Shown here: piece after piece, positions 38,587 to 39,252 of the stretch
Position numbering within the stretch: position 1 is the first letter of the stretch
How the letters are laid out: each line of letters opens with the position of its first letter
DNA from: Escherichia coli
GTDB taxonomy: Bacteria > Pseudomonadota > Gammaproteobacteria > Enterobacterales > Enterobacteriaceae
DNA: 64,000 nucleotides
Direction: 5' to 3' (one strand)
NCBI RefSeq assembly: GCF_050920415.1
Contig: NZ_CP169309.1
Notes under the pieces: model-generated
Told to the model about the DNA's origin: nothing
Database searches by the model: none
What the model saw: only the letters and a program-made list of their open reading frames with translations
Translations under genes and position numbers: made by a program

Positions 38587-38802
38587 AGGTGTATTGCTCA
38601 ATCTTCGAACGGGGGGAGGATTGTAGCAGAATCGCATTTGAATGTGACCGAGTGAAAACCGCTAACCGGATGGCTGCGGATGTTTAAATCAGAGAGGGAA
38701 GGCCGAAACCGGAGTTCATCATGAATCCATTAGACTTAGAAAATATCGGGTCGTAACGTTGTGTTATTACTTTTTCAGAGTTTACTAAGGAGAGGTTTAC
38801 TC

Positions 38803-39252
38803 GTGGCGATTAATTTCAGCCCCAAGGTTGGTGAAATACTGGAATGCAACTTTGGTAACTATCCTGTTAGCCAGAATGGACAGTTCAGCACGACGTATTA
38901 CGATGGCCGCATTCCACCTGAGATGATAAAAAATAGGTTGGTTGTCGTGCTCAACGGAAAAATTAATGGCAACGCATGTATCGTCGTTCCATTATCAACC
39001 ACTCGCGACCATGACAAGTTAAATCGTGGAATGCATGTTGAAATAGCCAGTAATGTTATCAATGACCTGCAATTCTTTGATCAGCAGATACGTTGGGCTA
39101 AAGCCGACCTGGTACAACAAGTCAGTCGAAACCGATTAAACAGAGCAAGGACTTATCGGGGGTATCTTAATCAATGTTTGCCACATGAGTTGGTTGCAGA
39201 CATACAGAGGGCAGTCATCAAGTCAATCAATGCCATATCGCTCATAAATTGA
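38803..39252 (+). CDS. yifN: Conserved hypothetical protein YifN (small protein of uncertain function, possibly toxin-like fold)
   Basis: 149-aa ORF from GTG with aaggagagg Shine-Dalgarno; sits between rep and ppiC as yifN does in K-12; function not established. Confidence 0.6.
   Translation: MAINFSPKVGEILECNFGNYPVSQNGQFSTTYYDGRIPPEMIKNRLVVVLNGKINGNACIVVPLSTTRDHDKLNRGMHVEIASNVINDLQFFDQQIRWAKADLVQQVSRNRLNRARTYRGYLNQCLPHELVADIQRAVIKSINAISLIN

Follow-up and report, generated by a model that had tools for sequence, protein, structure and literature searches.

A small RNA gene beside yifN, a MazF/PemK-fold gene of Escherichia coli: probably a mobile, type III-like module

The yifN gene, its product and the RNA gene downstream

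The gene yifN lies between rep and ppiC in the stretch of DNA analysed here, 64,000 nucleotides of an Escherichia coli genome (contig NZ_CP169309.1, RefSeq assembly GCF_050920415.1; hereafter the window). A family profile and a structural model identify its product as a member of the MazF/PemK toxin superfamily, and we found that a conserved gene for a small RNA follows it directly. An earlier note on this DNA had described yifN as an orphan toxin-like gene with no recognisable partner gene. Its tentative mention of a PemK/MazF-like toxin was right, but its conclusion that the gene is an orphan was wrong: yifN indeed has no protein partner, yet it is accompanied by an RNA gene, which is located on the side opposite to the upstream spacer where the note had proposed to look. 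Our results suggest that the two genes probably form a mobile module of a MazF-fold nuclease and an RNA, similar in kind to type III toxin–antitoxin systems.

The open reading frame (ORF) reported at 38761-39252 is present. The maximal plus-strand ORF opens with a GTG at 38761, closes with the TGA at 39250-39252 and encodes 163 amino acids (aa). These coordinates describe the longest ORF, whereas the 149-aa length and the sequence that had been given with them belong to the shorter annotated coding sequence (CDS), whose product VAINFSPKVGEILECNFGNYPVSQNGQF starts at an in-frame GTG at 38803. It is at this position that YifN homologues begin, with the residues M-A/P-I-N-F. In an identical E. 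coli genome, RefSeq annotates this 149-aa CDS as a 'type II toxin-antitoxin system PemK/MazF family toxin' (WP_000996698.1); a 1-kb query around yifN is 100% identical to E. coli strain MFDS1022581. Ribosome profiling by Ribo-RET gave a yifN signal at the annotated start and at an upstream in-frame start (10.1101/520783). The neighbouring rep had been called convergent with yifN; since rep is on the minus strand, the two genes are divergent, with their 5′ ends facing each other.

The assignment of YifN rests on its sequence profile and its modelled fold. The protein matches the Pfam family PemK_toxin (PF02452) over residues 37-141 with 42.7 bits against a gathering score of 23.1, and distant YifN-like proteins likewise exceed the cutoff. 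An AlphaFold model built on 83 homologues (predicted local distance difference test 75.5, predicted template modelling score 0.70) has the SH3-like β-barrel with a C-terminal helix of the MazF/Kid/CcdB type. The 50 best Foldseek matches of this model in the PDB are MazF toxins, so that the fold check proposed in the note came out in favour of a MazF/PemK-type fold, and the proteins closest to YifN in structure are all toxins that arrest growth. At the sequence level, no PDB chain was matched by phmmer or by the YifN family profile, and NCBIfam gave no match to YifN. Across the 83 homologues, which are 44-86% identical, 12 residues are invariant, R45 and S65 among them. The catalytic residues of E. 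coli MazF are R29 and T52, and hhalign places R45 and S65 onto this pair; because the alignment is of low probability, with an ambiguous register near S65-T67, this is an indication and not a proof that R45 and S65 are catalytic. The loop between strands β1 and β2, modelled with low confidence, is about 16 residues longer than that of MazF and contains an invariant PPEM-x-K-x-R motif. The YifN family is small and distinct, comprising 521 clusters at 50% identity (E<=1e-3) among 1.84 billion representatives, and the Joint Genome Institute annotation labels homologues as 'YifN (PemK superfamily)'. Overall, the profile and the modelled fold make YifN a member of the MazF/PemK superfamily with suggestive catalytic residues and, most likely, a sequence-specific endoribonuclease.

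The RNA gene begins 32 nt after the yifN stop codon, with a predicted start at about 39284, and the −35 hexamer of its σ70-type promoter contains the stop codon itself. The RNA corresponds to a known transcript. In E. coli K-12, a 79-nt RNA, ecr3777(d+), was detected by RNA sequencing and northern blot on the same strand between ppiC and yifN, and was listed at U00096.2 3957925-3958004 as a novel RNA with no function given (Romero et al. 2014, PMC4681348). After coordinate conversion, this interval falls at about 39283-39362 of the window, which makes it the same RNA. In the literature searched, ecr3777(d+) comes without a link to yifN and without homologues, structure or promoter analysis; none of the E. 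coli records listed has an annotation for the RNA, and Rfam has no family for it, the best match being RF01772 (rnk_pseudo) with 19.9 bits against a gathering score of 55. The promoter recurs outside the window. It is found at the matching position in 38 of 39 RNA copies from other loci, with a mean of 9.3 matches out of 12 versus 5.3 at random positions; scores of at least 9/12 are reached by 25 of the 39 copies versus 0.5% of controls. Since there is no terminator between the two genes, transcription of yifN should run on into the RNA sequence, which would form the 3′ end of the yifN mRNA; the terminator of the RNA presumably serves both transcripts.

According to a model derived with RNAalifold and pair counting, the RNA consists of two small hairpins followed by an intrinsic terminator (Table 1), and it folds better than shuffled controls (z=-2.7). 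In hairpin 1, two sequences have G:C in place of C:G at the pair C5:G14. Hairpins 1 and 2 are similar to one another, and in several loci (L076, L075, L040 and L042) this similarity takes the form of two to three clear tandem repeats with a period of 25-27 nt: the L076 RNA has two perfect 17-mers (period 25), that of plasmid pHN61 two 15-mers (period 26) and that of Roseateles three copies (period 27). We also considered a fold in which the two motifs pair with each other, and rejected it for 86% and 72% paired cells and an A:C mismatch, a result worse than that for two separate hairpins.

Table 1. Features of the yifN locus in window coordinates
Feature	Position	Strand	Basis
yifN CDS, 149 aa, GTG start, intact here; MazF/PemK-fold protein, putative endoribonuclease	38803..39252	+	
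Shine-Dalgarno sequence AAGGAGAGG for the GTG at 38803	38787..38795	+	sequence reading
Upstream in-frame extension giving the 163-aa maximal ORF; outside the conserved protein	38761..38802	+	ORF list, homologue starts
σ70-type promoter of the small RNA, TTGACA-17 nt-GATAAT, 11/12 matches	39249..39277	+	promoter scan
Small RNA gene, ~75-80 nt	39284..39358	+	published K-12 RNA, covariance model, conservation
Hairpin/repeat 1, GCC-CAUAGA-GGC (consensus GCC-N6-GGC)	39287..39298	+	100% of cells paired in 36 sequences
Hairpin/repeat 2, UCCC-CUUGA-GGGA (consensus YCCC-N5-GGGR), ~26 nt after repeat 1	39310..39322	+	3/4 pairs changed on both sides
Intrinsic terminator hairpin and U-run	39328..39351	+	fold; 7/10 pairs compensatory, 99.4% of cells paired
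Variable ~800-bp cassette (yifN and small RNA)	38590..39387	.	alignment against a yifN-less strain (D10) and a yifN-positive strain; population counts
rep-yifN spacer, without conserved small ORF or RNA; likely rep promoter on minus strand	38587..38786	.	similarity, Rfam and promoter scans
rep (DNA helicase Rep), left neighbour	36565..38586	-	ORF list, RefSeq
ppiC, right neighbour	39404..39685	+	ORF list, RefSeq

The pair across genomes and mobile elements

A BLAST search with the 75-nt RNA returned matches just after the stop codon of a YifN homologue in Superficieibacter, Chimaeribacter, Pantoea, Photorhabdus, Xenorhabdus, Intestinirhabdus, Serratia, Pseudomonas and a metagenome-assembled genome of Legionellaceae. 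With a covariance model built from 20 copies, all 37 full-length gamma- and beta-proteobacterial YifN loci in the genome scan proved to have the RNA beside YifN, and these loci gave no match elsewhere. In the window, the model (R1) gave a single full-length match in 64 kb, with 81.3 bits and E=4e-20; the other match was a 12.7-bit partial one on the reverse strand of the same terminator. The association also holds in the reverse direction, since each of the 23 metagenome contigs recovered with a pattern of the RNA alone has yifN, intact or frameshifted, directly upstream. The usual arrangement is an RNA downstream on the same strand. In Shewanella, the RNA is downstream but convergent, and in Massilia and Herbaspirillum it is divergent and lies some 800 bp upstream of the YifN gene, the two being separated by an HTH_36/DnaD_N gene. 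In the two latter loci, the YifN homologue that follows this winged-helix gene has a C-terminal tail of about 65 aa (L047 1978-2219 (-) and 2459-3645 (+); L044 2132-2214 (-) and 2406-3642 (+)), and L047 has two tandem RNA copies on the strand opposite the HTH_36/DnaD_N gene.

These observations bear on the idea that yifN is, after all, a true orphan, or a type II toxin gene in decay, and that the RNA is unrelated to it or is a conserved terminator or 3′-untranslated element that merely hitch-hikes. Such a view would agree with the absence of an adjacent protein antitoxin, with the frequent frameshifts of yifN in E. coli and with the RefSeq annotation of a toxin gene only. However, YifN keeps the RNA in three orientations or positions, on chromosomes as well as on unrelated plasmids, and down to 38-45% protein identity; conservation of the RNA also exceeds that of the CDS. 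Together with the conserved dedicated promoter and the reverse co-occurrence, this makes hitch-hiking quite improbable in our assessment. We consider a functional link between YifN and the RNA far more probable than the particular mechanism proposed below.

The RNA is also present after the yifN genes of three plasmids: pCAR1, an E. coli IncF/X plasmid and a 4.3-kb ColE1-type plasmid, the last of which encodes a YifN protein only 33% identical. In total, YifN is distributed over 119 plasmid records, 58 of them conjugative; small mobilisable plasmids are included, and pND6-1 is listed. More distant YifN-like proteins (27-38% identity) are found in alpha-proteobacteria, on Pasteurellaceae plasmids and in one planctomycete. 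Their genes, too, are followed 0-200 nt after the stop codon by a promoter, a structured RNA and a terminator (L054, L056-L058, L060-L065, L067, L070, L072 and L075). The RNAs of these distant genes fall into at least three sequence classes and have in common a 5′ hairpin followed by a YUAAG-like motif. Carriage by phages was considered and rejected: the RNA pattern had no match in 2.9 million viral contigs, and the protein gave only distant matches, a 27%-identical YifN-like ORF at the extreme end of 11 Vibrio cyclitrophicus 'PE' phage-like elements (H56-H66, ~13 kb).

The surroundings of mobile copies are of some interest in themselves. In Pseudomonadaceae (L005-L008 and L074, the latter being pCAR1 83041-89487), the module is embedded in a long same-strand run of small ORFs together with an orphan N6 DNA methylase, a setting that resembles a conjugative leading or early region; other copies are near ssb (L022, L027 and L028). 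Five Pseudomonas loci (L059, L066, L068, L069 and L071) keep only the first 25-65 codons of yifN, without a detectable RNA, and look like deletion remnants of the module. In some small elements the gene adjoins replication genes, which raises the question of whether the module might be an accessory of plasmid replication or copy control, the chromosomal E. coli copy being left over from an element that had integrated. Thus, a YifN-like gene directly follows the gene of a primase C-terminal domain in pHN61 and the HTH_36/DnaD_N gene in the Oxalobacteraceae loci L044 and L047, and in the 4.3-kb ColE1-type plasmid it adjoins RNAI. Yet most loci, including the E. coli, Serratia, Photorhabdus and Pseudomonas chromosomes and pCAR1, have no adjacent replication gene. 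Since small plasmids carry few genes, adjacency in them is weak evidence, and we hold a replication role to be very improbable.

Within E. coli, yifN and the RNA constitute a variable cassette. The 1-kb query had at least a partial match in 5425 of 5426 complete genomes, and the cassette is carried by about 74% of them (3975 with at least 80% of the query; 4015 with the gene or the RNA). The remaining ~26%, ST131 and O6:K2:H1 strains among them, have a short spacer of unrelated sequence between rep and ppiC instead; in one cassette-free locus this spacer is 86 bp long (L003 1588-1673). In Superficieibacter electus, the cassette likewise adjoins rep. In K-12 MG1655, the loss of 1 bp at codon 70/71 has disrupted yifN (b3777), which is annotated as a pseudogene there. 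Exactly this deletion is shared by 1220 of the 4015 carriers, and it recurs in 9 of the 23 metagenome contigs, most of which are E. coli-like. Absence from about a quarter of the strains, the K-12 pseudogene and the spread of its allele qualify the description of yifN as a small conserved ORF; in the window the gene is intact. Such a distribution (plasmids, presence or absence, frequent decay of yifN) is typical of mobile addiction and defence modules.

The RNA is the most constant part of the cassette. Among 16 E. coli haplotypes, none of its 75 sites is variable, versus 8.4% in the CDS and 6.5% in the upstream spacer, and 3995 of 4055 E. coli records have it at 99% identity or more. Compared with the gene that it follows, the RNA has the higher mean conservation, 76% overall and 79% in the first 45 nt; the corresponding values are 64% for the nucleotides of the CDS and 60% for the YifN protein. 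The module of the E. coli IncF/X plasmid (L073 3516-3594; L032 3516-3594) offers a further comparison. Its protein is 56% identical to the chromosomal YifN, while hairpins 1 and 2 of its RNA are identical to those of the chromosomal RNA, the only differences being in the linker and the terminator loop. This suggests possible cross-talk between the chromosomal and plasmid modules.

Our search for partners on the other side of yifN and for protein partners gave a uniform picture. The 215-bp upstream spacer (38587-38802), which the note had singled out for a small ORF or an RNA, contains neither in conserved form. No plus-strand promoter-like site was found in it, the one promoter-like site being on the minus strand at 38648-38620. 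None of the seven Rfam matches in the scanned stretch, all far below gathering scores, falls in the spacer, whose similarity is restricted to E. coli/Escherichia and Superficieibacter. A 32-aa ORF at 38589-38687 is broken by a stop codon in K-12, and we rejected an upstream partner on these grounds. An adjacent protein antitoxin was rejected as well. The note's statement that no small antitoxin ORF adjoins the gene proved accurate for the window, for the RefSeq/PLSDB annotation and for homologous loci: no MazE/PemI-type ORF adjoins yifN in the window ORF list or in that annotation, and when all ORFs of 35 aa or more flanking the gene at 41 loci were clustered, no recurrent family emerged, with the sole exception of ssb near three mobile-element copies. 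By gene calls with Pfam and by annotation, homologues in Serratia, Roseateles, Pseudomonadaceae mobile elements and plasmids stand alone.

Two minor features of the locus are worth recording. An 11-codon ORF, MNPLDLENIGS, is located at 38722-38757 (+), 45 nt 5′ of yifN; it has a GTG start in K-12, and Superficieibacter keeps its length, frame and stop with poorly conserved amino acids. It may be a leader ORF or a product of chance. Between the small RNA and ppiC, at 39377-39390, the window is without a 44-47-bp stretch that is present in K-12 and most E. coli (compared with L004 4815-4880 and L002 2388-2451). As this stretch is flanked on both sides by the direct repeat CTGACAATT, its absence looks like a repeat-mediated deletion in what is likely the ppiC promoter region.

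How the RNA may act on YifN

The mechanism that we favour, at a probability of about 0.5, is that the RNA binds the MazF-fold YifN nuclease and restrains it. The dedicated strong σ70 promoter would supply free RNA in excess. Each of the two hairpin repeats in this RNA would contact one subunit of the YifN dimer, the RNA thus binding the protein directly and holding the nuclease inactive. Upon loss of the module or a shut-off of host transcription, the RNA would decay and the nuclease would be set free. The outcome would be plasmid addiction or a defence of the abortive-infection type. A chromosomal RNA kept where yifN is dead could, given that its hairpins are identical to those of the plasmid module, neutralise an incoming plasmid-encoded YifN and so act in anti-addiction.

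Several observations weigh against this mechanism. For intact YifN, the literature search found no report of toxicity, nuclease activity or RNA binding, and PADLOC-DB 2.0 returned 0 families for YifN at E<=10. The small hairpins are only modestly supported, since the terminator accounts for the bulk of the covariation, and the alternative pairing between the two motifs is only somewhat worse than the two-hairpin model. In the window RNA, the supposed repeats are two short degenerate motifs about 26 nt apart, and a repeat search of the window reports none. The RNA is downstream with its own promoter, unlike in described type III systems, where it is upstream and shares the promoter of the toxin gene. 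Finally, the RNA is invariant and expressed in K-12-type strains with a frameshifted yifN (1220 genomes) and may therefore have a function independent of YifN.

The last point also favours a different division of labour, in which the pair is a ribonucleoprotein or regulatory module. The RNA would then be the effector, for instance a trans-acting RNA with a C/U-rich single-stranded segment, and YifN a non-toxic processing, binding or turnover factor. Co-occurrence fits this explanation equally well. No other element of the module is as conserved as the RNA, which persists unchanged where yifN is a pseudogene, and the hairpins of the RNA are the same in the chromosomal module and in a plasmid module with a 56%-identical protein. 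On the other hand, all structurally close relatives of YifN arrest growth, the residues at the catalytic positions are invariant, and the RNA has no known target. The distribution, with plasmids (small mobilisable ones included), presence/absence islets and frequent pseudogenisation, is that of addiction or defence modules. On balance, we think a regulatory module unlikely, although it is the most serious competitor of an RNA that restrains a nuclease.

The RNA might instead act on the yifN mRNA, as in type I systems, by pairing with the ribosome-binding site or codons 5-20 and thereby blocking translation or triggering decay. Some loci look promising in this respect: in Photorhabdus L023 the RNA can form a long imperfect duplex with cognate codons 5-20 (-34.2 kcal/mol, z=-4.7), as it can in L048 (z=-2.9), the segment of codons 5-20 is the best mRNA site in 5 of 20 loci, and the C/U-rich stretch of the RNA resembles an anti-Shine-Dalgarno sequence. 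However, complementarity to the translation-initiation region is no higher than expected by chance (z about 0), and the longest continuous helices do not exceed 8 bp. In a 24x24 RNA-by-mRNA energy matrix, the centred cognate mean is 0.09 versus 0 for permuted pairs (sd 0.7, P=0.55), i.e. there is no cognate specificity. The apparent complementarity is explained by the quasi-palindromic CCC...GGG motifs. We therefore rejected antisense control of yifN, which appears improbable.

With the RNA acting on the protein as the favoured mechanism, the module can be seen more broadly. YifN and its downstream RNA might represent a previously unrecognised, widespread class of RNA antitoxins, in which a MazF-family nuclease is neutralised not by a MazE-type protein but by a short two-repeat RNA with its own promoter. 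This broader proposal is more tentative than the mechanism itself, and we would not yet bet on it. As envisaged, the class would extend over about three quarters of E. coli and over IncP-7 (pCAR1) and IncF/X plasmids, with diverged RNAs across Proteobacteria.

If an RNA-partnered MazF nuclease is indeed at work, the consequences would reach beyond this locus. 'Orphan' copies of MazF are usually dismissed as relics. Annotations of solitary toxins could hide unannotated RNA partners; the Prokaryotic Genome Annotation Pipeline (PGAP) labels yifN a type II toxin in thousands of genomes. A small RNA of K-12 that has been known since 2014 without a function would gain both a context and a testable one. 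Being a small mobile module on catabolic and resistance-associated plasmids, the pair may matter for plasmid maintenance or phage defence.

Comparison with known systems

To our knowledge, MazF/PemK proteins are textbook type II toxins that are always described with a protein antitoxin, and literature searches outside subscription journals found no link of a PemK/MazF-family toxin or of yifN to an RNA partner. YifN passes the profile of the MazF, PemK (Kid) and ChpBK toxins (PF02452), but differs from them in having no adjacent MazE/PemI-type antitoxin gene. Solved MazF structures cannot be reached with the YifN family profile at the sequence level, and the β1-β2 loop of YifN, with its PPEM-x-K-x-R motif, is longer than theirs. 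Where type II operons have a protein antitoxin, the conserved neighbour of yifN is an RNA gene. As an adjacent protein antitoxin was sought and not found, yifN is not part of a type II MazEF/PemIK operon. Nor does the pair resemble type I systems, whose antitoxin RNA is complementary to the toxin mRNA; the YifN RNA showed neither excess complementarity to the initiation region nor cognate specificity.

The best match in Rfam is to the rnk leader of Pseudomonas. The Rfam family rnk_pseudo aligns end to end with the small RNA (window 39277-39359), sharing '...UUGAGGG..AAA-CCC' followed by the terminator, and its score remains below the gathering score both here and for the Shewanella copy (36.9 bits; L038 719-824, -). 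It has no match in ten other RNA copies, and no rnk_pseudo-like RNA was found at the Pseudomonas loci with N-terminal yifN remnants. We rejected assignment to a known RNA family on these sub-threshold matches; rnk_pseudo could be a diverged relative of the small RNA or a chance match driven by the terminator.

A separate small-RNA antitoxin directed at a protein toxin has a precedent in AvcID, in which AvcI acts on AvcD; the system has a phage-defence role and is cited as type III (PMC10511110). The likeness ends there: AvcD is a dCMP/dCTP deaminase and not a nuclease, and neither YifN nor the RNA has any sequence or structural relation to the AvcID components. AvcI is reportedly non-repetitive and inhibits AvcD post-translationally.

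The most instructive comparison is with the ToxIN, CptIN and TenpIN families of type III. In the described systems, the RNA is upstream of the toxin gene, one promoter serves both and a terminator intervenes; the RNA repeats are 34-45 nt long. The toxins of these families are ToxN/AbiQ, CptN and TenpN, whereas YifN belongs to MazF/PemK. The YifN RNA is found downstream, convergent or divergent upstream, with a promoter of its own, and its repeats have a period of about 26 nt in two to three copies, degenerate in E. coli. Given a different toxin family and an RNA that is not upstream behind a shared promoter, the yifN module falls outside the described type III families. By analogy, it may nevertheless work like them. 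Type II MazF and type III toxin lineages share a fold, and a MazF nuclease partnered by an RNA would blur the boundary between the two types and link two toxin lineages of the same architecture.

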